A stretch of 64,000 bases of DNA, taken from positions 122,042 through 186,041 of the forward strand of contig JBAQFJ010000001.1 of assembly GCA_049287205.1 (NCBI GenBank), in the 5' to 3' direction. The translations under genes and the position numbers were made by a program. The notes under the pieces are model-generated. The model saw only the letters and a program-made list of their open reading frames with translations, was not told where the DNA came from and made no database searches. Positions 77 through 62,349 of this stretch are shown here, in pieces. Numbering within the stretch: position 1 is the stretch's first letter; every line of letters begins with the position of its first letter. Source of the DNA: Microgenomates group bacterium. Its GTDB lineage: Bacteria; Patescibacteriota; Microgenomatia; UBA10105; UBA927.

Positions 77-96
77 CCTCAGGGTCAGACCCTCTC
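77..96. repeat. GAGGGTC-W-GACCCTC palindromic element, copy 1
   Basis: cctcAGGGTCAGACCCTctc, about 45 nt upstream of rpiB. Confidence 0.8.
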
Positions 97-1770: not shown

Positions 1771-3639
1771 ATGATAGTTATGTTAGTTCCTGCTTTAAAA
1801 AAATTATGTACGCGTCTTCGTTATGATATTTTGACGATGACAACGACTGCCGGTAGCGGTCATCCGACCTCATCACTTTCTGCAGTGGAGTTAATGGCGA
1901 CACTGTATTTTAAATATCTCAGGCTTGATACAAAAAACCCAGATGCATATACGAATGACCGTGTTATTTTTTCCAAAGGACACGCATCACCATTGCTCTA
2001 CGCGCTGTTTCATGTTGCAGGATGTATTTCTGACAAAGAACTTGGCAACTATCGTCAATTTGGAAGCACTCTTGAAGGGCATCCTACGCCGCGATTTCTA
2101 TACGCAGACATTGCAACGGGATCACTCGGTCAAGGGCTTTCTGTGGGACTTGGTGAGGCCATAGCTGGTGCACCGCATGTGTTTGTTTTATTGGGTGATG
2201 GGGAATTGTCAGAAGGAGCTGTATGGGAAGCGGTGATGGCGGCAGGATTTCATAAAACGAATAATTTAATCGCACTTGTTGATGTAAATGCGCTCGAACA
2301 ATCGGGAAGTACGATGGAAGCGTGGGATACTGAGGTTTACAGAAAACGGTTTGAAAGCTTTGGGTGGGCAACGCTTGTGGTTGATGGGCATGACCTGAAA
2401 ATTTTGGATACGGCGTATCAAAAGGCGCTCGACTATCGTGGCGGCCCGACGGTAATCTTAGCAAAAACCAAAAAGGGAAATGGTATTTCATTTTTGGAAA
2501 ATAAACACGGATGGCATGGAAAAGTGCTTTCCAAAGAACAATTACATACCGCATTGCTTGAACTTGGGGATATAGATACATCATTTGAAGGCATTATCAA
2601 AAAACCAGATGTTTCTCATGAGCAACAGACATCTGCCTCTATGCGGGTTCAAAAAAATAGTACGTATGAAAAAGCGACGACCACAAGAGAGGGATTTGGG
2701 AAAGCAATAGTGCGGCTTGGAGTGGTAAATAGACAGATAATGGTTCTTGACGGTGATCTGGAAAAATCCACGTATACGCATTTGTTTCATGAAGCACTGC
2801 CACATCAATTTTTTGAAGGTCACATTGCAGAACAACTCATTGCAGGCATTGCATCTGGCATGTCTATTTGCGGGATGTATCCTGTCATTTCTTCGTATGG
2901 AAGTTTTTTAACCCGTGCAATCGATCAATTCAGAATGGCTGCAGTATCAGGAATACCCATGATGGTAAATGGATCGCACGGTGGGGTTTCTGTGGGTGCA
3001 GACGGTGTGTCTCAAATGGGGCTTGAAGATATCGCGTTGTTTCGTGCTCTGCCAAATTCCATTGTTATGAGTCCTGCAGATGCAGTGGCCGCAGAAAAAT
3101 TAACAGAACTCATATATGGTTATTCGGGAATTGCATATATCAGGACAACCCGGCCAAGTGTGCCTATTTTGTATGATGAAACAATGGAATTTATAATAGG
3201 CGGAAGTGTCACACACAAAGAACAGGGCTCCACTACGCCAAAGGCTGCGCGGAGTGAAAAAAAACTTGTGACCATTATTGCAACAGGAGTGACGGTGCAT
3301 GAAGCGCTGAAAGCGCAAAAAGAATTAGAAGACAGCGGCGTTCCAACGCGTGTGATTGATTGCTACAGTATTAAACCTGTTGATGCGACGGCAATTCGAA
3401 ACGCCGCAGCAGTTTCGAAACAATTGATTATTGTTGAAGACCACTATCCTGAAGGAGGGTTAGGCGAGGCAGTATTTACCGCACTTTCAGGCACAAATCT
3501 GGAGAGGGTCATACCCTCTCTTCAGATGAACATTACACATTTGGCGGTATACAAGCCGCCAATGTCAGGATCTGCAGAAGAATTGCTTCGATACGAAGAG
3601 ATTGATGCGACGGCAATAATTAGGACTGCGGTTGTATAA
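1771..3639 (+). CDS. tkt: transketolase (N- and C-terminal halves fused)
   Basis: 622 aa; TPP-binding N-terminus (TAGSGHPTSSLSAVELMATLYF, GDGELSEGAVWEA) plus pyrimidine-binding/C-terminal domains. Confidence 0.9.
   Translation: MIVMLVPALKKLCTRLRYDILTMTTTAGSGHPTSSLSAVELMATLYFKYLRLDTKNPDAYTNDRVIFSKGHASPLLYALFHVAGCISDKELGNYRQFGSTLEGHPTPRFLYADIATGSLGQGLSVGLGEAIAGAPHVFVLLGDGELSEGAVWEAVMAAGFHKTNNLIALVDVNALEQSGSTMEAWDTEVYRKRFESFGWATLVVDGHDLKILDTAYQKALDYRGGPTVILAKTKKGNGISFLENKHGWHGKVLSKEQLHTALLELGDIDTSFEGIIKKPDVSHEQQTSASMRVQKNSTYEKATTTREGFGKAIVRLGVVNRQIMVLDGDLEKSTYTHLFHEALPHQFFEGHIAEQLIAGIASGMSICGMYPVISSYGSFLTRAIDQFRMAAVSGIPMMVNGSHGGVSVGADGVSQMGLEDIALFRALPNSIVMSPADAVAAEKLTELIYGYSGIAYIRTTRPSVPILYDETMEFIIGGSVTHKEQGSTTPKAARSEKKLVTIIATGVTVHEALKAQKELEDSGVPTRVIDCYSIKPVDATAIRNAAAVSKQLIIVEDHYPEGGLGEAVFTALSGTNLERVIPSLQMNITHLAVYKPPMSGSAEELLRYEEIDATAIIRTAVV
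3502..3520. repeat. palindromic element, copy 2 (inside tkt coding sequence)
   Basis: GAGAGGGT-CAT-ACCCTCTC, perfect 8-bp stem; encodes LERVIPSL. Confidence 0.7.
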
Positions 3640-7257: not shown

Positions 7258-7333
7258 AGTATATTCCTTTCACACCCTCCGGGTGTCGTCACTCGTACGT
7301 TTTTTCTCTATGAATCGAAAAAACTACGAATTA

Positions 7334-7361
7334 ACAAAAAAAACTCCCGCTTCAAGCGAGA
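7334..7361 (-). terminator. hairpin + U-run in the rplA-rplJ intergenic leader (attenuator/terminator)
   Basis: Minus strand: ctctcgcttgaagcgggag hairpin followed by a run of 9 T; lies in the L10 leader. Confidence 0.5.
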
Positions 7362-7466
7362 GAATGATGCATCAGCTGTGTGACGCATATGTTTTCCCTC
7401 GGTAGGATTTATGGATTTCTCCGCCTACTGTCTCTAGGACGATGGTTATTTATACCATTTCGAGCG

Positions 7467-13361: not shown

Positions 13362-15128
13362 TTAGTTTGTTTTATAGACATTCCAGACACACGCGTTATG
13401 ACTTGGTTGGGAATAGGGGGTTTGTACTGTGTCACAGGTATCTCCACCAGTCGGACATTGAGACGCAAGTCCGCCGCCTGTGACACAACTGTTGAGTTTT
13501 GTGGCGCAACTTTTGGTTTTTTCATCCCATCCATTGCCAAACTCCCAAAATCTGATAGCTGATTCTACGTTTTCGTCTTTCCACGCGGCACATGTCTGTG
13601 CTGTATCGGCGAGGGTAGAAACGAGTGAAATGCCGAAACATTTCTTTCCCGCAAATGCCGGCGCATATTGAAATCGGTGAACTGTTTTGGCAAGGGAAAA
13701 AATACCGTCGGTGAGATTGCAGGCGTTCAATGTTCTGTTTGGGTCTATAATTTTTACCGCGTCCGCAACATCTACCCAGTCTGATTTGAAGTAGGGAACA
13801 ATGTTATTGATAATGGATGCATTTACATCGCAGTTTGGCAAAGTGCTGCACCCGTCAAGATATTGATCAACGCCTGCAGTTTTAAACACCTTGTTTGGAT
13901 TAAACGCTCCTTCTCCATACATAACACCAAGCATGAGCGATGCGGGGACATTGTATGCGCTTGCTGCTGCCTCGATCGTTTCAATCAGTTTTGCTGAAAG
14001 TCCGAAGGAATTGTTTTTGAGTTTACATTCTGATTTGATGGTCAGTGTTGGAAGTGCGCCTGTGGTGCAGTCGGATGGTGTTGTGACATCTTGTTTACAT
14101 TTGTCGGATAAGCCGTATTTGTTTCTGAGGGCTTTGGGAAGTATTGCGCACTTCATATAGTTGGTTGCATCTTCTATTGCCTTCGTTCCAAGTGTGTGTG
14201 TTTTGATGTTTTGATTATCGCTGAACGCATTATCCTGTTCACCGCTCGTTTCATTTCCTGTGATGGTATGTGATACATGTGCGTATGTTTCTACGACGCC
14301 GCCGCTTTCCTGCACACGTTTTTGTTCTTCCTCACTTTTTAAGTAGGAGAGATCACCGCCTGCTGCGCATCCAGTAATGAGACAGTCCATGCTTTCTGCA
14401 TAGGGGGTAAGCTGTTTGGATGCAAGTGTTGCCTTGATAAGCCCGCCGGTACCAAAGATGCTTTTTAACAATTCCAGAAATCCGCCGGTATTGAAAAAGC
14501 CGCCAGTTGTTTTCACTGTTTTTGTTTCTTGTGTGTCACCTGTATCTGTTTCATCGCACAGCGGCGCATTTGCAATTTCCAACGGTTCGCGGTCTGTATT
14601 GTAATTGTAGTCTCCGTCAACAGGGGAGATGGAATATTTGCTGGTAATTGCAGCAGCAAATCGTGATGCTTGGTCGAGTGTAGAGAGTTCAGGAATGATT
14701 TCCGTTTTATATGCCTGTTTGCTTTCCTGCTCGACAATGGTGTTGTTCTCGTTGGTTTTGCAATACCGGGCGCGCCCTGAAATATACAAATTCTTTTCCT
14801 GATCAATCGTTTTTTCTTTGATGATATACGGAGTAAGAAAATGTACACCGTTTGCAAAAAAATTGGCAATTGTTTCCAGTTTTGGCACCTTAAAGTCTGT
14901 CCCCGTCGTCAAATTCACATCTTTTATGGTTATGGATATGGAAGGTTCTGTTCCACCGATGGAAAAAGGCACAGAGTTATCCAGCAGTACGTTTAGCGCG
15001 CCACCAGTATCGATTTGCCGAACGCTTGGGGAAGTGGGGATCGGAGTTGTTGTTTGTGCACGCACCGTATGTTCTGGTATAGCGCTCAGAGAAACAAGAA
15101 CAACGACAGCACAAAAAAACCGTTTCAT
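13362..15128 (-). CDS. secreted protein with putative lytic-transglycosylase (SLT-like) motif
   Basis: 588 aa; N-terminal signal peptide; Cys-rich C-terminal region; MLGVMYGEGAFNPN resembles the ES-x-FNP motif of SLT domains. Confidence 0.5.
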   Translation of the reverse strand: MKRFFCAVVVLVSLSAIPEHTVRAQTTTPIPTSPSVRQIDTGGALNVLLDNSVPFSIGGTEPSISITIKDVNLTTGTDFKVPKLETIANFFANGVHFLTPYIIKEKTIDQEKNLYISGRARYCKTNENNTIVEQESKQAYKTEIIPELSTLDQASRFAAAITSKYSISPVDGDYNYNTDREPLEIANAPLCDETDTGDTQETKTVKTTGGFFNTGGFLELLKSIFGTGGLIKATLASKQLTPYAESMDCLITGCAAGGDLSYLKSEEEQKRVQESGGVVETYAHVSHTITGNETSGEQDNAFSDNQNIKTHTLGTKAIEDATNYMKCAILPKALRNKYGLSDKCKQDVTTPSDCTTGALPTLTIKSECKLKNNSFGLSAKLIETIEAAASAYNVPASLMLGVMYGEGAFNPNKVFKTAGVDQYLDGCSTLPNCDVNASIINNIVPYFKSDWVDVADAVKIIDPNRTLNACNLTDGIFSLAKTVHRFQYAPAFAGKKCFGISLVSTLADTAQTCAAWKDENVESAIRFWEFGNGWDEKTKSCATKLNSCVTGGGLASQCPTGGDTCDTVQTPYSQPSHNACVWNVYKTN

Positions 15129-18428: not shown

Positions 18429-18545
18429 ATAAATACGCGCTGTTTGTATTATAGCGAATATTTTTTACACCTGCAGACGTGTTTTATAGAAAAATTTCAC
18501 GAGGAAAAATTTTGATTTGAAGCTAAGGCGAAGCTAGCTTTTCAC

Positions 18546-18560
18546 GAGGGTCTGACCCTG
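18546..18560. repeat. palindromic element, copy 3
   Basis: ttcacGAGGGTCTGACCCTG immediately after the rpmG stop. Confidence 0.8.
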
Positions 18561-18563
18561 CGA

Positions 18564-18737
18564 TTAGTCTAAATGACTGGTTTCTTTGTGTTCCGTGTGT
18601 TTTTTGCAGTGCCTGCAATATTTATTGAGGTGCAATTTTTCCGGAGTATTAATTTTATTCCGTTTGGTTATATAGTTGGTTGCTTTGCACACAGTGCAAA
18701 CAAGTCCAATGAGTAGTCGTTGATCTTTCTTTGCCAT
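18564..18737 (-). CDS. rpmG: 50S ribosomal protein L33
   Basis: Not in the >=60 aa track. Minus strand: MAKKDQRLLIGLVCTVCKATNYITKRNKINTPEKLHLNKYCRHCKKHTEHKETSHLD (57 aa), classic L33 zinc-ribbon pattern. A GAGGGTCTGACCCTG element follows the stop. Confidence 0.8.
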   Translation of the reverse strand: MAKKDQRLLIGLVCTVCKATNYITKRNKINTPEKLHLNKYCRHCKKHTEHKETSHLD

Positions 18738-20411: not shown

Positions 20412-21350
20412 ATGAAAAACATTTTGGTCACAGGTGCATTCGGACAAATTGGCAGTGAACTTGTGCCGGCGCTGCAGAAGAAATTTGGTGAGACACATGT
20501 TGTTGCGATAGGACACCACAATATCCCAAAAAATTTCAAAGGGATTGTGGAAATTGCGGAAATTGGCGAGGGAGAAAAATTGGAAGCAATCATCAAAAAA
20601 TATTCTATCGATACGGTCTATCATCTTGTCTCACTGCTTTCCGCCAAAGGGGAAGTGGATCCTTCTTTGACGTGGCAGGTGAATATGGGTGGACTGAAAA
20701 TAATTTTGGATTTGGCGGTGACATATAAATTGCAGGTATTCTGGCCAAGTTCTATTGCTACATTTGGTCCGACTACGCCACGAGTGGAGACTCCACAACG
20801 AACAGTGTTGGAGCCGACAACCATGTACGGTGTTACCAAAGTTGCAGGAGAATTGTTGGTTTCGTATTATCATAAAAAATTTGGACTTGATATTCGGTCT
20901 ATCCGCTATCCGGGACTCATCAGTTGGAAGACGCCGCCTGGGGGTGGAACAACAGATTATGCGGTTGCCATTTTTTACGAAGGATTAAAACAGGGAAAGT
21001 ATGAATGTTTTGTTCGTCCTGATACGACGCTTCCAATGATGTACATGGATGATGCAGTTCGTGGAACAATGGAACTTATGGAGGCAGACCCAACGAAACT
21101 TACTGTGACGACGAGTTACAATTTTTCTGCAATCAGTTTTACAGCGGAAGAGTTAGCAGCAGAAATTAATAAATATATAAAAGTTGATGTAACCTATGCA
21201 CCTGATGCACGTCAGGCAATTGCAGATAGTTGGCCGCAGTCCATTGACGATACGGCAGCGCGGAACGATTGGGGATGGAAACATGAATATACACTTGAAA
21301 AAATGACAACCGTGATGATAGAAGCATTACAAAAGAAAGGAAACCTATGA
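20412..21350 (+). CDS. tdh: L-threonine 3-dehydrogenase (NAD-dependent epimerase/dehydratase family, short-chain type)
   Basis: 312 aa; [15 protein letters not shown] Rossmann N-terminus, YGVTK catalytic YxxxK. Sits next to kbl as in SDR-type Tdh operons. Confidence 0.7.
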
Positions 21351-22558
21351 ACGATCCATTACAACCGTTTTATGATCAGATTGAGACGATGAAAGAGAAG
21401 GGATTGTATACAAATATTCGCACCGTTGAATCATCACAGGGTGCATGGCTCACAGTTGGCGGCAAAAAAGTATTGAATTTTTGTTCCAATAATTATCTTG
21501 GTCTTGCAGGTAATGCAGATCTCGGTAAAGCTGCGATTGCTGCCATTAAAACATATGGTGTTGGGCCGGGAGCGGTTCGTGTGCTTTCCGGAACGAATAT
21601 CTTGCATCTTGAACTGGAAACCCTGATTGCAAAATTTAAACGATGCGAAGCTGCCATCGTTGTACAGAGTGGATTTATCGCCAACATCATTGCGATTCAA
21701 TCCCTCATGGGGAAAGAAGATGTCGTGATTTCTGATGAACTCAATCACGCATCCATCATTGATGCGGTAAAAATTGCACAGATTGGAAATAAATTTATTT
21801 ACAAGCATAATGACATGCAGGATTTGGAACTAAAACTGAAAGAAGTCCAGCAGCTTGCGGAAACCCCACGTACGGATGGGTCGAAACGACTTGTTTTGAT
21901 CGTGACGGACGGTGTGTTTTCGATGGATGGAGACATTGCAAAACTTCCAGAAATTGTGCACCTTGCGAAAAAATATGGTGCAATCACTATGACCGATGAT
22001 GCACATGGCGAAGGGGTACTCGGAAGTCATGGACGGGGAATTGTGGATCATTTTAATCTCCACGGACAAGTAGATATTGAAGTAGGGACGCTTTCAAAGG
22101 CACTTGGCGTGGTTGGTGGAGTGATTACCGGCAAAAAAGAACTGATTGAATGGTATCGGCAAAAAGGACGACCATTCGCATTTTCCACAGGGCTGACTAT
22201 TCCTGATACCGCAGCACTGATTGCTTGTATCACGATGCTTATGAAATCAGATGTCTTAGTCAAAAAAGTGTGGGCAAATGGTGACTATTTAAAAAAGGAA
22301 TTTACAAAGCTTGGATTTAATACGGGCGTGTCAGAAACGCCGATTACACCCGTAATGATCGGTGATGAAAATCTTGCCAAGACGTTCAGCGCTAAGCTTT
22401 TTGAACACAATGTGTTTGCAACACCAATTAAGTTCCCGATGGTGGCACTTGGGAAGGCGCGGATTCGCGTTATGCCATCAGCTAGCCATACAAAAAAAGA
22501 TTTGGATTTCGGAATTGCCGCATTTGAAACAGTTGGGAAAGAACTCGGCATTATCTAG
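21347..22558 (+). CDS. kbl: 2-amino-3-ketobutyrate CoA ligase (glycine C-acetyltransferase)
   Basis: 403 aa PLP enzyme of the AONS family; ATGA overlap with tdh. Confidence 0.8.
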
Positions 22559-22561
22559 CTT

Positions 22562-22580
22562 GGAGAGGGTCAGACCCTCC
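22562..22580. repeat. palindromic element, copy 4
   Basis: GGAGAGGGTCAGACCCTCC between kbl and the hydrolase gene. Confidence 0.8.
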
Positions 22581-22587
22581 TTAAACA

Positions 22588-23592
22588 ATGAAGACAAACG
22601 TATTTCGCATTATTCTCGTGTGTTTGATCATTGGTGTTGGTGGTATCTTCGGATGGCTGGTATTTCCAAAAGAAAACGGAGTACTTATTAGTCCGTTAAG
22701 CATGGTGAAAGAAAAACCATTGGAAAAATATTCCATACTGCGATTGGCGAGTCGTGAATTTATTCCTTCTCCGATTGTGTTAAGTGAACCCACAGCCACA
22801 ACGAGCGCGTATACAGTCTATCCGTTTTCGTTTGTCAGTGATGGGAAAAAAGTAACGGGAATTGCCCATATTCCTATATCAGTAAATCCTGAAAAAACAT
22901 TTCCTGTGGTTGTGCAACTCCGCGGGTATGTCGATCGGGAGATCTATACGCCCGGTATGGGCACAACACATAGTGCCGAAGTCTATGCAAAAAATGGGTA
23001 TATTTCCTTTGCGCCTGATTTTTTGGGATACGGCGGATCTGACGCGCCGTCATTAAGTCCGATTGAAGAGCGACTGGAAACCTATACAACCGCTTTGACA
23101 CTTCTTGCATCTGTTCCAAGGTTTCCACATGCAGACCCAACGCGTATTGGACTATGGGGGCACAGTAACGGCGGACAGATCGCGTTGACACTTTTGACGG
23201 TTCTTGGTGACCGTGCAGTACCCACTGCTGTATGGGCACCGGTGACAAAACCGTTTCCGTATAACATTTTGTATTACACGGATGAATTTGATGATCGGGG
23301 AAAAGCTTTACGAAAAGTGGTGGCAGATTTTGAGGCAGACTATGATGCGGATTTATATTCCATGACGCAGTATCTGGATCGGATTGCCGTTCCTATACAG
23401 CTCTCTCAGGGAACAAACGATGACGCGGTGCCTTTTGCGTGGAGTGATAGTTTTGTGGAACTTTTGGAAGAAAAGAAAACAGATGTTACATATTATATTT
23501 ATTCCGGAGCTGACCATAATTTAGCAGGTGGTGACGCGTGGAACAGTGCGATGGGGCGCGATATGCAGTTTTTTGCTGCTGCATGGAAATAG
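22588..23592 (+). CDS. membrane-anchored alpha/beta-hydrolase (dienelactone hydrolase / S9-like)
   Basis: N-terminal TM; GHSNGG nucleophile elbow; Asp/His later. Bracketed by two copies of the GAGGGTCAGACCCTC element. Confidence 0.65.
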   Translation: MKTNVFRIILVCLIIGVGGIFGWLVFPKENGVLISPLSMVKEKPLEKYSILRLASREFIPSPIVLSEPTATTSAYTVYPFSFVSDGKKVTGIAHIPISVNPEKTFPVVVQLRGYVDREIYTPGMGTTHSAEVYAKNGYISFAPDFLGYGGSDAPSLSPIEERLETYTTALTLLASVPRFPHADPTRIGLWGHSNGGQIALTLLTVLGDRAVPTAVWAPVTKPFPYNILYYTDEFDDRGKALRKVVADFEADYDADLYSMTQYLDRIAVPIQLSQGTNDDAVPFAWSDSFVELLEEKKTDVTYYIYSGADHNLAGGDAWNSAMGRDMQFFAAAWK

Positions 23593-23596
23593 CCGC

Positions 23597-23617
23597 GAGG
23601 CTAGGGTCAGACCCTCC
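23597..23617. repeat. palindromic element, copy 5
   Basis: gaggctAGGGTCAGACCCTCC, 5 nt after the hydrolase stop. Confidence 0.8.
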
Positions 23618-23672
23618 TTAGAAAAAAACACGGGAGATGAATCCCGTGTTTATTTTTTTATATGTGTTTTAT

Positions 23673-25529: not shown

Positions 25530-25853
25530 ATGCTTACTGGTGTGAGACTCAAAGAAAAAGCGAGGTGTTTTGAAAAAAAGATGCGAGGACCTGCACATAC
25601 CATCAGGCTTTCCATTATCTATCTTCTTGCACACGGCGAGTTGCCGCTCCATGAGATAGTTTTGGATATTGATAAACCACAAAATCTTGTATCGCATCAT
25701 ATGAAGGTGTTAGAAAAAAGCGGATGGGTGGGAAAACGGACAGAAGGCAGGGAAGTGTATTATCGTCTCATTGACCGTGGGTTTTTTGAGCTTCATCGTA
25801 TGATTGTTGATACGCCATTTTATCACACTACACTGATGAAACGGTTGAAATAA
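25530..25853 (+). CDS. ArsR/SmtB-family transcriptional regulator
   Basis: 107 aa; HTH ...LPLHEIVLDIDKPQNLVSHHMKVLEKSGWV..R.GREVYYRL. Confidence 0.7.
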   Translation: MLTGVRLKEKARCFEKKMRGPAHTIRLSIIYLLAHGELPLHEIVLDIDKPQNLVSHHMKVLEKSGWVGKRTEGREVYYRLIDRGFFELHRMIVDTPFYHTTLMKRLK

Positions 25854-25997
25854 GCGTTTTCCCTCTTGACTGTTATTTGAATTTTCTTCCATACTATAAC
25901 AGTTCGTATTTATTCTGCCCGAAGACAGTGCTATGAAGCTTATATATTTCAATAGTGCATATACGGCAATGCAAATTGCCGGGCATTCTTTTCTCTA

Positions 25998-38454: not shown

Positions 38455-38503
38455 TATATTGTTTATATGTTTTTCCTATGATACACTGAGGCCACAAAAT
38501 TTT

Positions 38504-39334
38504 ATGAAAAAATATTTTCTTCCAACAATAGTAAAAAAATATAATAAAATTGCAATCGTCGTACTTCTTGGAATTAGCATTGTGGCACTCGGTATGTTTG
38601 TTCTTTCAAAAGTAGTCACAGACAAATCCGATTTTGTTGTTGTTCGAGTAAAAGGCAGTCCTGGTAATTGGTGGTGGGTGACACCGCGGCCGCCCGATTG
38701 GCTTGTTTCTTCAATTCATGTTGGAGACAAAGAATATAGCTCTTTGAACAAACCAACAGCAGAAGTCTTAGACCTCAATATTTATGATGCAGGCGGTTCA
38801 ACAAAAGATTTGTATATGTATGTCCGGCTTGCTGCCAAAAAAAATAGACAGACAGGAAAATATCGGTATAAGGGTGAAAATCTTGAAATAGGAGGACCGA
38901 TCAATTTAAGCTTAAACAACGTGCTTGTCCCTGGTATGGTTACAGAGATTCATGAAGGGTCTAGTATTCCTCAAAAAACATTCCTTTGGAAAACAGTCAC
39001 CGTCCGCATGTTTGATAAATGGCCGTGGGAATATGATGCAATTACCATTGGAGAAGTTATGACAGATGGGGTAAATACCATTGCTGAGATTGTCGATAAA
39101 ACATTTGTTCCGTCTCCACGCGAGCCATACACGTATACTGGACAATTGCTTGCAGCAGGAAGCCCAATCCAACAAGATTTTATTCTTACTCTCAAGATTC
39201 GCGTTGAACCGCGAGGGTCTGACACTATTTTTCGTGAAGAACAATACGTCAAATTAGGAAACGGGTTATGGATACAATTTCCCAGTTATAACGTAAGCGG
39301 CGGAATCATTACTGCAATCCATGAAATTCTTTGA
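38504..39334 (+). CDS. hypothetical membrane-anchored protein (DUF, beta-rich extracytoplasmic domain)
   Basis: ORF 38459..39334; start MKKYFLP at 38504; single TM; no recognisable catalytic motif. Confidence 0.5.
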   Translation: MKKYFLPTIVKKYNKIAIVVLLGISIVALGMFVLSKVVTDKSDFVVVRVKGSPGNWWWVTPRPPDWLVSSIHVGDKEYSSLNKPTAEVLDLNIYDAGGSTKDLYMYVRLAAKKNRQTGKYRYKGENLEIGGPINLSLNNVLVPGMVTEIHEGSSIPQKTFLWKTVTVRMFDKWPWEYDAITIGEVMTDGVNTIAEIVDKTFVPSPREPYTYTGQLLAAGSPIQQDFILTLKIRVEPRGSDTIFREEQYVKLGNGLWIQFPSYNVSGGIITAIHEIL

Positions 39335-53250: not shown

Positions 53251-53277
53251 GTGGGTAGGGTCTGACCCACATTTTTC
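53251..53277 (+). terminator. intrinsic terminator after rpmB (stem built partly from a GGGTCTGACCC repeat copy)
   Basis: gtgggt-agggtctg-acccac hairpin followed by atttttcg. Confidence 0.6.
53257..53268. repeat. palindromic element, copy 6 (within rpmB terminator)
   Basis: AGGGTCTGACCC. Confidence 0.6.
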
Positions 53278-53337: not shown

Positions 53338-53616
53338 ATGGCAAAAAAAACACGTCGAACAGTAACAAACAAACCTCAGAAAAAAATGTTTGACCTTTCG
53401 TCGTGGAATTTTATTTTATTTTTGACACTCGCGTTTATTCTCCTTGTTGTTGTACTTACTCAAATGAATAAAGTTAGTTTTGATCTTCGAAGCAAAGCAG
53501 GGTTAACCTGTCCTACACTTACTACGCCGAGAGCAGAGGATTGCGCAGGCGGCTGGACGTTCAAACGGGATACAAATGGCTGTCTTGCGTTTTTTTGTGA
53601 AGCAAAACAAGAATAG
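53338..53616 (+). CDS. small hypothetical membrane-anchored protein
   Basis: 92 aa; basic N-terminus, one TM, Cys-containing C-terminus. Confidence 0.45.
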   Translation: MAKKTRRTVTNKPQKKMFDLSSWNFILFLTLAFILLVVVLTQMNKVSFDLRSKAGLTCPTLTTPRAEDCAGGWTFKRDTNGCLAFFCEAKQE

Positions 53617-53778
53617 TAATTCTGTTTATTTTTAGTTTTTGATTTTTATTCCTCTTCGTTACTATTTCACGGTGACTACGTATAGTTTACCTTATTAAGG
53701 TAGCGTTTTGATTTTGTTTGGATTGTTAATACTTTCTAAAAACTAATTATTGTGATTAAACAAGCGTGAAATCCGTTT

Positions 53779-53809
53779 GAGGGTCAGACCCTGACAGGGT
53801 CAGACCCTG
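53779..53809. repeat. two tandem copies of the palindromic element (copies 7a/7b)
   Basis: GAGGGTCAGACCCTGA + CAGGGTCAGACCCTG; the second overlaps the last codons and stop of fmt. Confidence 0.8.
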
Positions 53810-54753
53810 TGGAGGTAGGCGGTTTGGAAAGTTTCCCAGTCAACGGGATTTTTTCCTTCCAGTTGAACAGTTTTGATGGAAAGTTTTCCATCTCGGACTG
53901 CATAGTCTAATAATTTAAGCCGCTTTTCTTGATTGTCGACGATTACTGTTGTCCAAATGCCCGGCCAAGGAGAAAGAGCCCTGAGAAGGCGAAGCAGAGC
54001 CTCTGGGAGTGGTTCTGTAATTTCTTGCAGTACTGTGCCAAGCCGTTTTTCACGGGTTGCGTCGGTGCCTGCAATTGCAATTGTTATAAGTGGAAATGGA
54101 ACAAATCCATCAGTCCTCGTCAATTTTCGTGCAACAAGGACGTCTTCTTTTTTTTGCAGGATAAGTTCACTGTTTCCTTTGAAATAGGTAGGTAGCGTTT
54201 CAAGCAGAAGTTGCGCACCAATGGTAAATAATTTGGTTCTGAGCGGATCAGGCAGATCATGTTCTGTTATAGGGATTTTTTTTTGCGCGACAATGTCGCC
54301 GCTGTCAAAGCTATCGGTAATGATGGAAATGGTGACTCCTGTCTGGGCATCTCCCGCAATGATCGTCCATGGAACAGGATCTGCACCGCGCCATCTTGGA
54401 AGCAGGGAAGGGTGTAAATTGATACTTCCATGTTTCGGCAGCTTGAGCGCTGCACTTGGCAGTTTTTGTCCGTAACAGGCGGTGACAAACAGATCCGGCT
54501 TAAATGTTGCAAGACTATTCGTGACATCATCGTCATTTTTATATTTCCATCCTTGTTCTTCATCCGCCACAAATGTGAGGCATGGCAATTTTTGTTCTAT
54601 TGCCCAGAGTGCGAGCGGTGTTTTTGTGATTATTTTGTCGCGCCCCACCGGTTTTTCCGGTTGTGTAACCACAGCAGAAAGCGGATATTTTCCATGGAGT
54701 GTACGTGCGACAATGACAGAATCTTCCGTAGAGCCGAAAAAAATGATGTTCAT
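53800..54753 (-). CDS. fmt: methionyl-tRNA formyltransferase
   Basis: 317 aa; NIIFFGST N-terminus and INLHPSLLPRWRGADPVPW formyltransferase motif. The stop TGA lies inside a GGGTCTGACCC repeat copy. Confidence 0.9.
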   Translation of the reverse strand: MNIIFFGSTEDSVIVARTLHGKYPLSAVVTQPEKPVGRDKIITKTPLALWAIEQKLPCLTFVADEEQGWKYKNDDDVTNSLATFKPDLFVTACYGQKLPSAALKLPKHGSINLHPSLLPRWRGADPVPWTIIAGDAQTGVTISIITDSFDSGDIVAQKKIPITEHDLPDPLRTKLFTIGAQLLLETLPTYFKGNSELILQKKEDVLVARKLTRTDGFVPFPLITIAIAGTDATREKRLGTVLQEITEPLPEALLRLLRALSPWPGIWTTVIVDNQEKRLKLLDYAVRDGKLSIKTVQLEGKNPVDWETFQTAYLHRV

Positions 54754-57405: not shown

Positions 57406-57636
57406 ACGGATTTTAGTATATCATAGGCAACAAGTACGTTGACTTAGGAGGCTAAATGTTATAGGATATTGGTCTGAAGCGGGTTTACCCGTTTTTAGGG
57501 TGTTTTTTGGTTCATTACGACCGAAAAATCCAAAGATGGAGCAAGTCTCATCTTTGTTAATGACTACGTTATTTGCGGATCGTGGAAATGTTCATGATTT
57601 GACGAATAGCCTAGTTTTTAGATCTTTTACAAGTGA

Positions 57637-57843
57637 ATGAAGAATATTATTCGTAGAGGAGCAGACGAGATGGATAATCCATTGGCAAATGTTGTACCAG
57701 AGTTAGGTGTTATGGCAAAAACACTGAGAGAAGTGCTTGAGAAATCAAGTTCTGAATTTTTAGGTGTTAAACCGCAACGTCCTGAAATAACTGAGCAAGA
57801 TTCCCATAAAATAGACGATGAGAACGATGACAAGGAGAACTAA
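57637..57843 (+). CDS. small acidic hypothetical protein
   Basis: 68 aa; GAGGAG RBS upstream; no motif. Confidence 0.3.
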   Translation: MKNIIRRGADEMDNPLANVVPELGVMAKTLREVLEKSSSEFLGVKPQRPEITEQDSHKIDDENDDKEN

Positions 57844-58065
57844 ATGAAAGCCAACTCTAGCTCGAAAGTAACAACTGTATTTGATGCGCTTCAAGCTGCA
57901 ATTCAAGGAGTTTTTCAAAATAAATCTGGAAAAGGGGGCCAAAATACGGCTGTTGTCATCACGAATTCAGTGTCGGTTCAAGACCCATTTGGAGGTTCTG
58001 CGAAAGGTGAAAGTAGAGTTACTATCAGCAAAGAAGTTCACCCGCAGGAACAACAACGCCATTAA
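57844..58065 (+). CDS. small hypothetical protein
   Basis: 73 aa, start abuts the upstream ORF stop. Confidence 0.3.
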   Translation: MKANSSSKVTTVFDALQAAIQGVFQNKSGKGGQNTAVVITNSVSVQDPFGGSAKGESRVTISKEVHPQEQQRH

Positions 58066-58076
58066 TTTGTGTCACC

Positions 58077-58859
58077 TTGAGGAGAAGAGAAATGGAACAA
58101 AAATCGTTCAACGAAAAGAACGCGTGGTTTCTCAAAATTTTGTGGTTGTGTTTCTTTTTTGTTCTGACGGCATTTGGAAGCTATTGGGTGAATAAACAAT
58201 TACCAAAACTTCATCCATGGGCAATCGAATCTTTCGTTTGGTGGTTGGTGACGCTTGTAGCGCTCACGCGTGTAAAGCCGGAAAATAAAGAAGGCTTTTG
58301 GAAAAAAAGTGCCGCGTACGCGGAAAGAGTGCTGCTTAGCCTGTTTAATCTGGCGCTTTTGTCTTTTGCAACCATTACGGAGTTAATTTACTTAGGTAAA
58401 TCGTCGTGGTTTGCCCTTGTGCCGGCGGTGTTATGGATTGTTATCCTAACGCTTATTGTTTTTAGCAATCATCGCCGAGATCATCCGAAAGAAGAATCTG
58501 AATCTTTTGAGGAAGAACAATCTATGCCTTCCGGCTTGGAGAATCTGTCGGTAAAGCATGAATTGTTGGCGGAATTCGGACTTCCTGTTCGATCCGGAGC
58601 ATATCTCAATTTGGCTGATTTTCAAAATGCATTGGCGGATTTGGCGCATGCAAAAATAACCACAGCAAAAGCAGAATTTCTTCAAAGTATTGTTGCCGCG
58701 CAAAATAAAAATGCGATTTCCGCAGAAGAAGCGGCGCAACAGATTAGAAACGAGTTAGGTATCCGAGATACAAATAACGAAACACCAATTGAAGAGACAC
58801 AAAGACTAGTCGTTCCAATTCAATCAACAACAAGAAGTCGGAAAGGTTGGCGTCCATGA
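58077..58859 (+). CDS. hypothetical membrane protein
   Basis: 260 aa; 4 TM in the N-terminal half, helical C-terminus. Confidence 0.5.
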   Translation: MRRREMEQKSFNEKNAWFLKILWLCFFFVLTAFGSYWVNKQLPKLHPWAIESFVWWLVTLVALTRVKPENKEGFWKKSAAYAERVLLSLFNLALLSFATITELIYLGKSSWFALVPAVLWIVILTLIVFSNHRRDHPKEESESFEEEQSMPSGLENLSVKHELLAEFGLPVRSGAYLNLADFQNALADLAHAKITTAKAEFLQSIVAAQNKNAISAEEAAQQIRNELGIRDTNNETPIEETQRLVVPIQSTTRSRKGWRP

Positions 58860-59635
58860 TCACTTATATCTTATGTGGTATACCATTGTTGTATCTTTTT
58901 GCTCTGGTATATCCAAAAAACTGGTTTTCTGTCAATGCGACAGAGCGAGGCGGCATTTTTCGTTTCGGGAAGCTTATCCGAATTGTAGAGCCGGGTTTTC
59001 ATCATATTTGGCCTTGGGAAGAATACAGGGTTGATGATACTCGTGTACAGGAAGCGAAAATTCCGATAACAGATATGGCGGTCATCGGTATTACGAATAT
59101 GTTGTTTCGTATCGACCTCCAGATCTTCTTTCAGATTTTAGATCCGATCGCATTGTATTTGAAATATAAAGGAAACATCATCGATGCGCTAATTTCATTG
59201 GCTGAAGGTGCTTTAACACAGGCGTTGAATCAAATGAAAGACATTAATCCTTTTGATTCAACTGATGGTAAAAATCAGCTGTACGAATTGAGTGAACGGA
59301 TTTTAAGGCAAGATGCGGCGGATTTGGGAATCGTCATCGAGAAATATGTATTTCAGCGGGTGTATCCTCCAAAATCTGTTTTGGCAAAAAGTGAACAGAT
59401 TATGGATGCAGAAGGTACTGCTGCATCGTTGAAAATCCTCAGTGATGCGCAAGCTGCTCAAGCTGAAGCACTTGGGAATAACTTTCTGCCATTGCAGGCA
59501 ATCAAGGCAGTACAGGAAGCTATCGAAAAAGGTTCAGCAAATGGGGCATTCAAAACATTTGTGTTGGGCGAAGGATCTGTGTCTAGTTTGCTCCAGCTGA
59601 TTGATCAGGAAGGAAAGGATAAAAACGATGGATAA
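58847..59635 (+). CDS. SPFH/band-7 (stomatin/prohibitin-like) domain protein
   Basis: 262 aa; N-terminal TM; ...ERGGIFRFGKLIRIVEPGFHHIWPW... typical SPFH core. Confidence 0.55.
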   Translation: MASMITYILCGIPLLYLFALVYPKNWFSVNATERGGIFRFGKLIRIVEPGFHHIWPWEEYRVDDTRVQEAKIPITDMAVIGITNMLFRIDLQIFFQILDPIALYLKYKGNIIDALISLAEGALTQALNQMKDINPFDSTDGKNQLYELSERILRQDAADLGIVIEKYVFQRVYPPKSVLAKSEQIMDAEGTAASLKILSDAQAAQAEALGNNFLPLQAIKAVQEAIEKGSANGAFKTFVLGEGSVSSLLQLIDQEGKDKNDG

Positions 59636-60131
59636 TTTCATTGTTCTTTTGGTTTTTCAAGGATGGGAATTTGTCAAAACGTTACGAAAGTATTTGCCTG
59701 GGGGACTCTATCTTGTCCTTTGCCTGCTTGTTGCTTTTTGGTATAAAGCACCAATCCTCCCGATTTTTCGATCAATGTCCGATGCAACCTATACCTATGG
59801 AATTCTTACGATTTCCTTTGTTGCTTGGACAATCGCGTATTGGGCTTTTGTCCTGACGAGGAAAGAGTATGAAATTCCACCAAAAACAGAAAAGCAGAAA
59901 GCTACGATACAGGTCGGAAACAGAAATTTGGTTTCCGTGCTATTCGGTGTCGTAGCAGTTCTAATTTTTTGGTTGTTGGGAATTTCAAGATTAGCATTGA
60001 TCATCATCGGCGTTATCCAGTTTTCGGCGTTTGTGTTTGGAGATAAATTTCAACAACAGGCGGAGTATATCCTGCCGAAGTTTGTTAATTTTTCTCTCTT
60101 GCTTTTGGGTGCATGGATTGTCGGTGCTTAG
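59628..60131 (+). CDS. hypothetical integral membrane protein
   Basis: ORF 59601..60131; start MDNFIV at 59628 overlaps the SPFH gene stop. Confidence 0.45.
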   Translation: MDNFIVLLVFQGWEFVKTLRKYLPGGLYLVLCLLVAFWYKAPILPIFRSMSDATYTYGILTISFVAWTIAYWAFVLTRKEYEIPPKTEKQKATIQVGNRNLVSVLFGVVAVLIFWLLGISRLALIIIGVIQFSAFVFGDKFQQQAEYILPKFVNFSLLLLGAWIVGA

Positions 60132-60307
60132 TTTCTTCATTCACAACCTGTATAAAAACAGGATGCCTGAAAGGTAAAAAAATTGCGACTGTCTATCTGA
60201 CGGTTTCGATTTTTCTTTCCGGTTCGAGCTGGTGTAGTGAAATTTGATTGACCAATCTATCGGTCTTCTTATTTCACTGCACCTGCTCTTTTTCCTTCCT
60301 ACAATGT

Positions 60308-60326
60308 GGAGAGGGTCAGACCCTCG
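60308..60326. repeat. palindromic element, copy 8
   Basis: GGAGAGGGTCAGACCCTCG. Confidence 0.8.
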
Positions 60327-60368
60327 CTCGTTGTAGGCAGAGAAGAGAGTATTTCACAATATAAATTT

Positions 60369-60386
60369 CACGAGGGTCAGACCCTG
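60369..60386. repeat. palindromic element, copy 9
   Basis: ttcacGAGGGTCAGACCCTG; shares a 20-nt extended context with copy 3. Confidence 0.8.
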
Positions 60387-60394
60387 TAAACAAT

Positions 60395-61201
60395 ATGAGC
60401 ATTGAACGCGGTGGTTTCAGTTTTAAAAATAATATCAATTATTCTCCGGTGAAAATAATTCCGGAGGGTTGGGGAAACGTATTTGTTCACTACGAGCCAA
60501 ATAATTGGCAACGTACAACGCCGGTTATCGATTCGGGCATACCGGATCATGGCGCACAGGGAGCTATTACCCTTCAAATAGGAAAAGAAAAACCGACAAC
60601 TATACCTAAAGGAGAAGTTACAGTCCCTGACGGGGCGACCGTTACCTGTACCTATTTTACGAAAAACGATCCAAAAGGCATGCAACCGATAACTATAGAA
60701 CTATACAGGAACGGGTCTTCACCAACAGTTTTTGATCCAAATAAAAATACTACGGAAGAAAAGAAATTTTCTCTTGAGAGTCAGTCTGTGTTAACTGGTG
60801 AAGAATTTCCCAATCCACTAGAGCCAAAAATGAAAGTGTGGGAAGAAAAAAATCCAACATATATAACACAATCTCAGGTTGAGGAAATTTTAGGTTTTAA
60901 TGTTTCTATGCTGATCAAAAAAGGATTTATTCATCCACGATATCATGATCACAAAGGCACGATTAAAGAGTTTACGATGCATGATGTTTTACGCGCCTTT
61001 CTTATAAAAACGGTAAAGACGGAAAATCATCTGGTATTTTGGAGTCAAATCCGATCTTCGACTGTGACACCGTTTACCGAAAAGAATGTTCAATATCTTC
61101 GAGAGCAATCAGATTGGCCGGAGTTAGTGAAACGCGGGAAAACGTTTGGAATAGATGTAGAGCAATATGCAGATAGTCTTTTGAAGAATATGTCGCGATA
61201 A
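60395..61201 (+). CDS. hypothetical protein
   Basis: 268 aa, no recognisable domain; bracketed by GAGGGTCAGACCCT copies. Confidence 0.5.
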   Translation: MSIERGGFSFKNNINYSPVKIIPEGWGNVFVHYEPNNWQRTTPVIDSGIPDHGAQGAITLQIGKEKPTTIPKGEVTVPDGATVTCTYFTKNDPKGMQPITIELYRNGSSPTVFDPNKNTTEEKKFSLESQSVLTGEEFPNPLEPKMKVWEEKNPTYITQSQVEEILGFNVSMLIKKGFIHPRYHDHKGTIKEFTMHDVLRAFLIKTVKTENHLVFWSQIRSSTVTPFTEKNVQYLREQSDWPELVKRGKTFGIDVEQYADSLLKNMSR

Positions 61202-61228
61202 TATATCTCTATATGTGAGTATTCCATA

Positions 61229-61247
61229 GCGAGGGTCAGACCCTCTC
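61229..61247. repeat. palindromic element, copy 10
   Basis: gcGAGGGTCAGACCCTCTC, upstream of mreB. Confidence 0.8.
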
Positions 61248-61293
61248 ATCACGTAGTTTGCTCTGATCATTTTGTGATAGAATGCATGGTACG

Positions 61294-62349
61294 ATGTTCG
61301 ACTTCTTTTTTGGACTACTTTCGCATGATTTAGGTATCGATTTAGGTACCGCAAATACACTCGTGTATGTAAAAGGAAAAGGCATTCTTATCCGTGAACC
61401 ATCGGTTGTCGCCAGACAAAAACGTTCTAAACAGGTTGTCGCCATTGGCAAAGAAGCAAAGAAGATGCTTGGAAAAACACCCGGAACAATTGAAGCTCTT
61501 CGCCCCCTCAAAGATGGGGTAATAGCTGATTTTGACGCGACAGCTGCAATGCTGAAATATTATATCGGCATCGTGCATGAACACCCAAAAACCCGATTAT
61601 TACCGAACATTCCCCGCCCCAAAGTGGTGATTGGTATTCCTTCCGGAGTAACAGAAGTGGAACGCCGCGCCGTGCAAGAGGCCGCACTTATGGCGGGTGC
61701 TAGAGAAGCATATTTAATTGAAGAACCAATGGCTGCAGCAATCGGATCGAAATTGCCGATTCAGGATTCCGCGGGTAGTTTTATTTGCGATATCGGTGGC
61801 GGAACAACAGAAATTGCCGTGTTATCGCTCGGTGGTATTGTAGTCAATCGAAGCATCAGGACTGCAGGAGACGAAATGGATGAAGCAATTCAGACATTTG
61901 TCAGGGTTAAATACGGTATGCTTATCGGCGACCAAACTGCTGAAGCTGTAAAAATTGCTGTTGGCAGTGCGTATCCGGTCGGAAAAAGCGACAGGCAAGC
62001 AGTTGTCCGCGGCCGTGATATTGAAACAGGATTACCCCGGTCAATCCGTGTGAGTGAGTCAGAAGTTAGAGAAGCACTTTCGCCTGTTATTCAGGAAATT
62101 GTTGAGGCAATTGGGGAAACCATGGAAGAAACGCCTCCTGAGCTCGTTGGAGACATTCTGGAACATGGGATTGTACTTGCAGGTGGAGGGTCACTCATTC
62201 GTGGCATTGATAAACTGATTGCAACAGAAACAAAAATGCCGGTATGGATTACGGAAGATCCGCAAACTGCAGTTGTACGCGGGTGTGGTATATTACTTGA
62301 TGATGCGGCACTCCTTTCTCATGTGAAAGTTGCACAGAGAAAAGGGTAA
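61294..62349 (+). CDS. mreB: rod shape-determining protein MreB
   Basis: ORF 61282..62349; start MFDFFFGLLSHDLGIDLGTANTLVYV at 61294; actin-fold phosphate-binding motifs. Confidence 0.9.
   Translation: MFDFFFGLLSHDLGIDLGTANTLVYVKGKGILIREPSVVARQKRSKQVVAIGKEAKKMLGKTPGTIEALRPLKDGVIADFDATAAMLKYYIGIVHEHPKTRLLPNIPRPKVVIGIPSGVTEVERRAVQEAALMAGAREAYLIEEPMAAAIGSKLPIQDSAGSFICDIGGGTTEIAVLSLGGIVVNRSIRTAGDEMDEAIQTFVRVKYGMLIGDQTAEAVKIAVGSAYPVGKSDRQAVVRGRDIETGLPRSIRVSESEVREALSPVIQEIVEAIGETMEETPPELVGDILEHGIVLAGGGSLIRGIDKLIATETKMPVWITEDPQTAVVRGCGILLDDAALLSHVKVAQRKG

Follow-up and report, generated by a model that had tools for sequence, protein, structure and literature searches.

The hydrolase locus and its palindromes

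The window analyzed here is a 64-kb stretch from the genome, about 1 Mb in size, of a Microgenomates bacterium (Patescibacteria, or candidate phyla radiation; CPR), and our subject is a short palindrome that recurs between its genes, which we regard with good confidence as a repetitive extragenic palindrome (REP) of a system that also includes a REP-associated tyrosine transposase (RAYT). At one locus an alpha/beta-hydrolase gene has a kbl-like gene as its upstream neighbor and a copy of the palindrome at either end (Table 1), the identical 15-mer being present in both copies. A first-pass annotation had reported this arrangement, together with a similar bracketing of a 268-aa gene (copies 60313, 60374 and 61233 around the open reading frame (ORF) 60395-61201; copies are named here by the position at which their core starts). 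Both observations stand, with small corrections to the distances: 8 nt after the kbl stop codon is where the core begins, and at the far end the AGGGTC starts 10 nt after the hydrolase stop codon rather than the 5 nt given there. The flanking copies are not an assembly artefact, because two independent short-read assemblies (L001 and L002) carry an identical hydrolase gene with both of them.

The window holds 10 copies of the palindrome's invariant core, GGGTCWGACCC (starting at 82, 18548, 22567, 23604, 53258, 53781, 53797, 60313, 60374 and 61233), compared with an expectation of 0.00 from 100 dinucleotide-preserving shuffles of the same DNA. Intergenic DNA makes up ~12% of the window, and all 10 exact cores are extragenic; the sole partial exception is 53797, the second core of a tight doublet, which at its centre supplies the TGA stop codon (53800-53802) of fmt (53800-54753, minus strand). 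The palindrome spans 11 bp as a core, 13 bp with an additional A/T pair and 19-21 bp in the best copies (for example, GGAGAGGGTCAGACCCTCTCC in the related assembly L003). A palindrome of ~40 bp is found only at 60298-60337, where copy 60308-60327 sits in the loop of a hairpin (CCTACAA/TTGTAGG) whose outer stem pre-existed; the counterpart hairpin in another relative, L087, has no REP. No Rfam family covers the element, and a scan of metagenome and viral contigs with GAGGGTCWGACCCTC (for the metagenome, among the matches listed) gave isolated single sites per contig, as chance would produce in collections of this size.

Most copies follow genes closely. The core starts 5 nt after the stop codon of rpmG, 8 nt after those of kbl and the L28 gene, 11 nt after that of the hydrolase gene and 31 nt after that of the 268-aa gene. 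By class of intergenic region, five copies are codirectional, four convergent and none divergent, the 14 divergent regions (33% of the intergenic length) being free of any copy (P ~0.03-0.06). No T run directly follows any palindrome in the window. A third bracketed gene is the 92-aa ORF 53338-53616, between 53258 and 53781/53797. There are three adjacent pairs among eight occupied intergenic regions, for which P is ~0.03 when all ~66-70 intergenic regions are counted and 0.07-0.13 when only the 40-50 usable ones are; the bracketing pattern is in itself only marginally non-random. We also considered a promoter or leaderless-start role for the copies that end 10 nt before an ATG, and rejected it because no -10-like hexamer lies at the right distance between palindrome and ATG.

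Table 1. Palindrome copies in the window, with the genes and sites beside them
Feature	Position	Strand	Remark
Copy CTCAGGGTCAGACCCTCTC	78..96		Upstream of rpiB (122-592)
REP-like palindrome GGAGAGGGTCATACCCTCTCT	3501..3521		In frame inside the transketolase gene
Copy CACGAGGGTCTGACCCTGCGA	18543..18563		Core starts 5 nt downstream of the rpmG stop; orthologue in L003 is a doublet
rpmG (57 aa)	18564..18737	minus	Small gene below the 60-aa ORF cut-off; translation begins MAKKDQRLLIGLVCTVCKATNY; copy 18548 after its stop
kbl-like gene	21347..22558		Upstream neighbor of the hydrolase gene
Copy GGAGAGGGTCAGACCCTCC	22562..22580		In the 29-nt kbl-hydrolase spacer
Alpha/beta-hydrolase gene (Peptidase_S9/DLH)	22588..23592	plus	Same position in four relatives
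Copy AGGGTCAGACCCTCC	23603..23617		Between the hydrolase stop and the terminator
Intrinsic-terminator-like hairpin ACACGGGAG...CCCGTGT with T run	23625..23660		Conserved in relatives with and without REP
Empty RAYT site	25853..25881		Between the ArsR-type HTH_5 gene and the next gene; REP-RAYT-REP there in L003 and L094
Degenerate copy GCGAGGGTCTGACAC	39211..39225		Inside ORF 38459-39334
Copy GGTAGGGTCTGACCC	53254..53268		8 nt after the L28 stop; orthologous copy in L087
Tight doublet GAGGGTCAGACCCTGACAGGGTCAGACCCTGT	53778..53810		16-bp period
Copy GGAGAGGGTCAGACCCTCGC	60308..60327		Hybrid A-left/B-right arms
Copy TTTCACGAGGGTCAGACCCTG	60366..60386		Ends 10 nt upstream of the ATG at 60395
268-aa gene	60395..61201	plus	No Pfam family
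Copy GCGAGGGTCAGACCCTCTC	61229..61247		Hybrid B-left/A-right arms; orthologous to L087 7030

Variation of the element around a conserved gene

We compared the hydrolase region with orthologous regions from four related assemblies, among them L006, the closest relative at this locus (kbl 95% and epimerase 92% identical to the window), and the more distant L003 and L004 (kbl and epimerase ~86-89% identical). The gene order is the same in all four: epimerase (tdh-like), (cupin), kbl, hydrolase and a 168-aa gene on the minus strand, followed in all but L003 by a 2-phosphosulfolactate-phosphatase gene. The spacer between kbl and hydrolase measures only 6 nt in L006 and is an unrelated 31 nt in L004 (kbl 86% identical), and neither genome has the element at either hydrolase flank. 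In L003 (kbl 86%, hydrolase 79% identical) the spacer measures 62 nt and both flanks of the hydrolase gene carry doublets of the element. The terminator hairpin 3' of the hydrolase gene is kept in all four relatives, and in the window and L003 the element is placed between the stop codon and this conserved terminator.

The hydrolase gene is therefore fixed in place, and the element is the variable part. The first-pass annotation had suggested that such elements might bound cassettes or units of gene gain and loss; for the hydrolase this fails, because the gene order stays while the elements are absent in L006 and L004, an outcome that the annotation itself had named as its refutation. The palindromes themselves do not have the form of intrinsic terminators: no T run comes directly after them, and a separate terminator is present at 23625-23660.

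Association with a RAYT gene in relatives

In L003, copies of the core also lie to the left and to the right of a gene that encodes the Pfam domain Y1_Tnp (PF01797). A Y1_Tnp protein 75% identical to its product (P0122, from L094/L095) is encoded at the same locus, adjoining an ArsR-type HTH_5 gene, and in L094 tight doublets of the same core (16-bp period) occupy both flanks of the transposase gene. This shared position next to the HTH_5 gene fits vertical descent. The true start of the L003 gene is Met42 of the called ORF, whose N-terminal extension is a translated REP doublet. At the corresponding place the window has 28-52 nt (25853-25881) where L003 (12531-13332) and L094 (2184-3140) carry a REP-RAYT-REP block of 0.8-0.96 kb; the empty site holds a possible CCCTC half-site scar, and a second L003 doublet near the RAYT locus (13495-13538) is also missing from the window.

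The protein matches Pfam Y1_Tnp with 37.3 bits (cut-off 23), and its only NCBIfam match is the family 'REP-associated tyrosine transposase' (NF047646; E = 1e-12). It is 220-240 aa long, with a conserved C-terminal extension (AYSSYxxYLG...W), and both its HUH motif H81-x-H83 (PNHFH) and Y141 (RYIHRNP) are invariant in alignments of 14 and 24 sequences. A single-sequence search against the PDB gave no match, and a profile search gave only borderline matches to ISDra2 (E = 0.1). The AlphaFold model of P0122 (predicted local distance difference test score, pLDDT, 81) was more informative: compared with the PDB by Foldseek, it matched 4ER8_A best (E = 6.2e-7, TM-target 0.68), a structure of E. coli RAYT in complex with a REP hairpin, with ISDra2 and IS608 TnpA behind it by a modest margin (E = 2e-5 to 1e-3).

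We extended the comparison to 80 RAYT loci, of which 78 came from a scan of species-representative genomes (mostly Patescibacteria, among the matches listed) and the other two from L003 and L094. A word of at least 11 nt is common to both flanks of the gene in 64-65 of the 80 loci (estimated chance ~0.06 per locus) and one of at least 12 nt in 28 of the 34 best; in the loci inspected by eye this word takes the form of a short palindrome, rich in GC and with a centre of 1-3 nt (for example, AGGGTCGGACCCT, AAGGTCTCACCTT, CTAAGGGTCCGACCCTTAG and CAAGGAGACTCCTTG). Flanking of a RAYT gene by its own palindromic repeats is the defining signature of RAYTs and REPs (PMC5581495, PMC3733652). The likeness to REPs proposed in the first-pass annotation is thus borne out twice over, by the RAYT-like Y1 transposase gene that the same palindrome flanks in two relatives and by RAYT homologues across the Patescibacteria, whose flanking palindromes are lineage-specific but built alike. 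The window's own contig is not represented among the best 120 RAYT homologues and, among the matches listed in the scan of the genome collection, no locus comes from that contig or from the L003 assembly.

The cognate palindrome also lies inside the RAYT reading frame in ~20 of the 80 loci, lineage-specific in each. These internal palindromes recur at two places, one in a variable loop around nt 120-190 and the other 0-30 nt past the catalytic YIHxNP motif (examples are L015 at 4151 and 4418, L034 at 4453, L018 at 4492, L009 at 3233, L030 at 4156 and 4466, and L016 at 4478). One such sequence, GGGTCNGACCC, reads Gly-Ser-Asp-Pro on either strand, and protein P0215 has GSDP at both internal places. 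As a separate observation, many of the RAYT contigs (L009, L011, L013-L015, L017 and others) are titled 'uncultured Gammaproteobacteria', and one 'Bathyarchaeia archaeon'; their taxonomic labels or binning may be wrong, the other hosts being Patescibacteria.

Doublets, single copies and core density

Most L003 copies are doublets in which two cores stand 33 bp apart, in the form GAGA-core-TCTC, a spacer with TAGCTTCA, and GCGA-core-TCGC; one of them occupies the site equivalent to 18548. An alternative form of doublet is a tight CA-core-TG pair. Folded as single-stranded DNA, the L003 doublets reach -14 and -17 kcal/mol, the L094 doublet -17.2 kcal/mol and the window doublet 53781/53797 -11.4 kcal/mol (z = -3.4 to -4.7 for the doublets at -14 to -17 kcal/mol, and -3 to -4.7 for doublets overall), compared with only -3 to -5 kcal/mol for single copies.

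Most copies in the window are single. In alignment A3, copy 18548 equals the L003 doublet minus 40 nt, and TAGCTTC remnants at 18500-18540 beside it have the look of a decayed REP cluster. Hybrid arms are found at 60313 (GAGA-core-TCGC), at 61233 (GCGA-core-TCTC) and likewise at L087 7030. Judged from these arms and alignments, several of the single copies in the window may be collapsed doublets, and it is this appearance that suggests a decaying-orphan state of the window REPs.

For the mreB side of the window the relatives compared were L087-L090, of which L087 is the closest (MreB 99% identical) and L089 and L090 are near-identical copies of one region; in L091-L093, which represent more distant mreB contexts, the upstream context differs and the GGGTCWGACCC motif was not found. 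Among the loci compared, core density tracks the presence of the RAYT gene. There are 5 cores in 5.4 kb of L094 and 11 in 21 kb of L003, where the gene is present; 10 in the 64 kb of the window, where its site is empty; and none in 42 kb of L004 and L088, where it is absent at the site. The RAYT site is not covered in L006 and L087 (2 cores in 19 kb) or in L089 and L090 (none in ~21 kb).

A probable REP/RAYT system in Microgenomates

The palindromes form a dispersed extragenic family placed after genes, are linked to a RAYT gene in relatives and are polymorphic in presence and absence at orthologous sites whose flanked genes do not move, the doublet being their fullest form. Because the same palindrome flanks the RAYT gene in relatives, and because about 65 of the 80 RAYT loci are flanked alike, we assign the palindromes to the REP type and to the REPIN type (a REP doublet forming a hairpin), and we consider it likely that they are the REP elements of a REP/RAYT system native to this Microgenomates group. 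By analogy with systems studied elsewhere, the full unit would be a doublet that folds, as single-stranded DNA, into one long hairpin; a single-copy RAYT of the HUH/Y1 class, itself flanked by REPs, would recognize such hairpins and would cleave and re-join DNA beside them. In known RAYT/REP and IS200/IS605 systems, an HUH/Y1 enzyme of this kind binds a hairpin on single-stranded DNA, cleaves and re-joins adjacent to it, and so spreads repeats in trans (PMC3479197, PMC3116915). Here, RAYT action would spread and maintain the repeats in transcribed intergenic DNA just past stop codons. The window lineage appears to have lost the RAYT gene from its ancestral locus, and the copies in the window would then be decaying orphans, with doublets collapsed to singles by core-to-core deletion. 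The bracketing of genes would arise incidentally, from REPs having settled in the intergenic DNA 3' of successive genes, and would not reflect a cassette structure, and any effect on mRNA ends would be secondary.

Several points weigh against this interpretation. There is no RAYT gene within the 64-kb window, the part of the ~1-Mb genome that was searched; the repeats of this genome may be mobilized in trans or may be orphans. The RAYT protein of the relatives scores 40-48 bits (47.7) on NF047646, short of the equivalog cut-off of 80, which makes it only distantly related to the curated proteobacterial family and no equivalog of its members. It also exceeds the E. coli chain of 4ER8 by ~60 residues, and transposition and cleavage activity is assigned to the CPR RAYT by analogy only. 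Classical REPs, at 20-40 bp, are mostly longer and less perfect than the conserved palindrome (13-21 bp around a centre of 1 nt), whose length lies at the bottom of their range or under it. Nor could an unpaired GTAG or CGTC tag at a fixed position be made out in the window and L003 copies or in other CPR palindrome families: NTAGCTTCA lies in the spacer of all five L003 doublets, with GTAG in two; the window copies have TAGC-type remnants at variable distances; and in the other CPR families NTAG/CTAN is an outer, paired part of the palindrome. Finally, three orthologous insertions are common to the window and L003, and the closer relative L006 is without them at the two sites covered, a pattern for which one must assume exact losses or else recurrent insertion at identical positions.

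Alternative explanations

The REPs could instead be boundaries of gene-sized recombination units, single genes between copies being inserted, deleted or swapped by recombination or by the RAYT. Evidence of this kind is found upstream of mreB, where the stretch that begins at the Wzy_C gene has a different gene content in every relative examined (a hypervariable slot that spans 57406-61281 in the window). For the window genes 58077-58859 (a weak, sub-threshold SLATT_3 match), 58847-59635 (Band_7/SPFH) and 59601-60131 there are no counterparts in L087-L090, which carry other hypothetical genes. L088, which is REP-free, has genes for 410, 265 and 133 aa ahead of mreB, the 265-aa protein being 54% identical to the window's 268-aa protein in the same slot. 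L087 has homologues of 427 and 132 aa and the REP orthologous to 61233 (L087 7030), and has no 268-aa gene; its 132-aa gene is unrelated to the window's 268-aa gene, and its counterpart in L088 is the gene that follows the 268-aa homologue. The window and L087 are homologous through the 60313 region up to ~24 nt short of REP 60374, and again from a point exactly within REP 61233, with different genes between these points. The breakpoints would fit an event in which recombination between REP cores removed the 132-aa gene, and a REP-mediated deletion at this slot is possible. The RAYT gene, too, is bracketed by REPs and is present or absent as a block.

The same region also holds evidence in the other direction. 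The L088 homologue of the 268-aa gene stands in the slot without a REP, and L087 has no REP upstream of the 132-aa gene, where the matching recombination event would have left one. For the earlier proposal that the 268-aa gene is a unit of gain and loss the picture is mixed: the varying content of the slot and the resumption of homology inside REP 61233 speak for it, the REP-free homologue in L088 against it. Elsewhere, the hydrolase gene keeps its place in four genomes with or without REPs, and the 92-aa gene is conserved in L087-L090; in L087 ~190 nt that include the doublet 53778-53810 are missing, and the 92-aa gene and fmt abut. No integrase was found among the window proteins scanned against Pfam (which cover part of the window), the bracketing is barely above chance, and the hybrid arms are explained equally well by simple doublet collapse. 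We therefore judge it unlikely that the REPs are, in general, boundaries of recombination units.

We consider it similarly improbable that the palindromes are primarily RNA elements of the host, that is, hairpins at 3' ends that halt exonucleases or end the transcription of individual genes; the first-pass annotation had offered stabilization of the mRNA end of each gene as one option. Their placement is compatible with such a role, most copies lying 5-31 nt downstream of a stop codon and divergent promoter regions being free of them, and REPs are reported to influence mRNA turnover (PMC3479197, PMC3733652). The folding energy in RNA form is -8 to -9 kcal/mol for single copies and -23 kcal/mol for the composite hairpin at 60313; the single-copy values are, however, not clearly beyond those of shuffles (z = -1 to -2.2). 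The palindromes lack a T run, the hydrolase gene already has a strong terminator that is conserved in relatives without the REP, and in close relatives the element is missing from the corresponding gene ends. A role in RNA would also leave unexplained the linkage to the RAYT gene and the in-frame intragenic copies.

A perfect palindrome of 13-15 bp with a 1-nt centre has the classical geometry of a dimer site, and the element might thus act as an operator to which a dimeric transcription factor binds (the product of the ArsR-type HTH_5 gene that adjoins the RAYT locus, say, or a global regulator) and so define a regulon; two copies (22567 and 60374) end 10 nt before a start codon. We find this very unlikely, considering that the divergent, promoter-rich intergenic regions are without copies, that copies sit between stop codons and terminators, and that presence and absence differ between genomes whose neighboring genes are 95% identical. 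Tandem doublets with a conserved spacer, a transposase flanked in some 65 of 80 loci and in-frame copies within ORFs are equally hard to reconcile with an operator. Finally, a DNA uptake sequence (DUS) favoring the uptake of self-DNA by the competence machinery common in CPR bacteria can be set aside with little hesitation: the shortness and over-representation of the motif, the DprA gene close to mreB in relatives and the frequent inverted pairs that neisserial DUS form after genes speak for it, but the motif is absent from 42 kb of L004 and L088 (kbl 86% identical) and from L089 and L090, its density is low (~1 per 6 kb), its placement is strictly extragenic, and neither a palindromic core nor transposase linkage is a feature of DUS or of uptake signal sequences.

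Comparison with known systems

The preferred reading, that of a REP/RAYT system, has its nearest parallels in the Proteobacteria. As with the REPs and bacterial interspersed mosaic elements of E. coli and other Proteobacteria and their RAYT (TnpA_REP, 4ER8; PMC3479197, PMC3733652), the elements are short, GC-rich, extragenic, multi-copy palindromes that are found downstream of genes, where neighboring ORFs run in one direction or converge; a Y1/HUH gene has the same repeats at its flanks, and 4ER8 is the best structural match of the model. The differences lie in the palindrome (13-21 bp with a 1-nt centre in the CPR, compared with 20-40 bp and imperfect), in the tag (REPs carry an unpaired GTAG or CGTC at one end, according to Di Nocera 2013, PMC3733652, whereas no fixed unpaired tag is established for the CPR palindrome) and in the protein, which in the CPR has 220-240 aa and a C-terminal extension, scores below the NCBIfam cut-off and belongs to a host of ~1 Mb. 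Pseudomonas REPINs (Bertels & Rainey 2011, PMC3116915; PMC5581495) resemble the CPR elements in that the doublet is the full unit, forms one long hairpin and flanks the RAYT gene, in that the RAYT gene occupies the same locus in two related genomes, and in that singles look like decay products. Unlike in those REPINs, each half of the CPR unit is itself a perfect palindrome, so that two small hairpins or one long one can form, and the CPR doublets are shorter (33-54 bp).

With the TnpA of IS200/IS605 insertion sequences (IS608, ISDra2) the system shares the HUH/Y1 fold and a hairpin-flanked gene. Members of IS200/IS605, however, are multi-copy and autonomous, have distinct left and right ends and do not leave dispersed hairpins without genes, whereas here there are dozens of gene-less intergenic palindromes and a RAYT gene at one conserved locus in two genomes. 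The cassettes of integrons are similar in having imperfect palindromic attC sites between single genes. Integron attC sites are 57-141 bp long, have R and L boxes and need the IntI integrase. The genes flanked here differ from cassettes in being syntenic core genes that are present without the sites in relatives, and we rejected an attC-cassette reading of the hydrolase gene because that gene is present in four genomes, two of them without the sites.

Intragenic copies and other features of the window

Two palindromes lie within ORFs of the window. The near-perfect copy 3501-3521, in frame in the transketolase gene (1771-3639), is translated as LERVIPSL and coincides exactly with an 8-residue insertion relative to human transketolase. 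The degenerate copy 39211-39225, in the DUF4330 ORF 38459-39334, reads PRGSD and could be due to chance, one-mismatch cores being estimated at ~1 per window.

The 57-aa gene at 18564-18737, which we take to encode ribosomal protein L33 (rpmG), lies in an apparent intergenic region of 353 nt whose DNA is strongly conserved in L003 and L004. The Rfam ribosomal protein L10 leader (RF00557) is matched at 7328-7455 on the minus strand with 57.7 bits. The mreB gene of the window was called at 61282-62349; because all close MreB homologues have 351 aa, its real start is probably at 61294, four codons after the first ATG.

Implications

The palindromes that bracket genes in this window are, in our reading, explained and ordinary, and they are notable mainly for their host, a CPR bacterium with a tiny genome. 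REP/REPIN-RAYT systems, studied for the most part in Proteobacteria, have been discussed as replicators that live within bacterial genomes, persist over long periods and pass on by vertical inheritance. In the literature searched, RAYTs or REPINs are not combined with Patescibacteria, and the text that names both REPs and CPR does not connect them; the REP/RAYT system has apparently not been described previously for the CPR.

We put forward, tentatively and as something we think rather less probable than not, a broader view in which the Patescibacteria hold a widespread and previously undescribed REP/RAYT branch of their own, with ultrashort perfect palindromes that co-vary with a longer RAYT and that are not purely extragenic, being embedded in the RAYT gene (in about a quarter of loci) and in host genes such as that for transketolase. 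If this is true, it would point to self-targeting or autoregulation of the transposase, and REP cores would be substrates for gene-sized deletions in minimal genomes. The in-frame REP copies in RAYT genes and in transketolase might be the part that deserves follow-up.

For annotation, the palindromes are better not treated as regulatory sites or cassette boundaries, and they explain differences in spacer length, short in-frame insertions and assembly breaks in metagenome-assembled genomes of Microgenomates. For the biology of these organisms they offer a compact natural system in which to follow the persistence and decay of repeats under extreme genome streamlining, in ~1-Mb CPR genomes of the episymbiont type, the material being the gain and loss polymorphism between near relatives and an apparent loss of the RAYT gene followed by collapse of the doublets.

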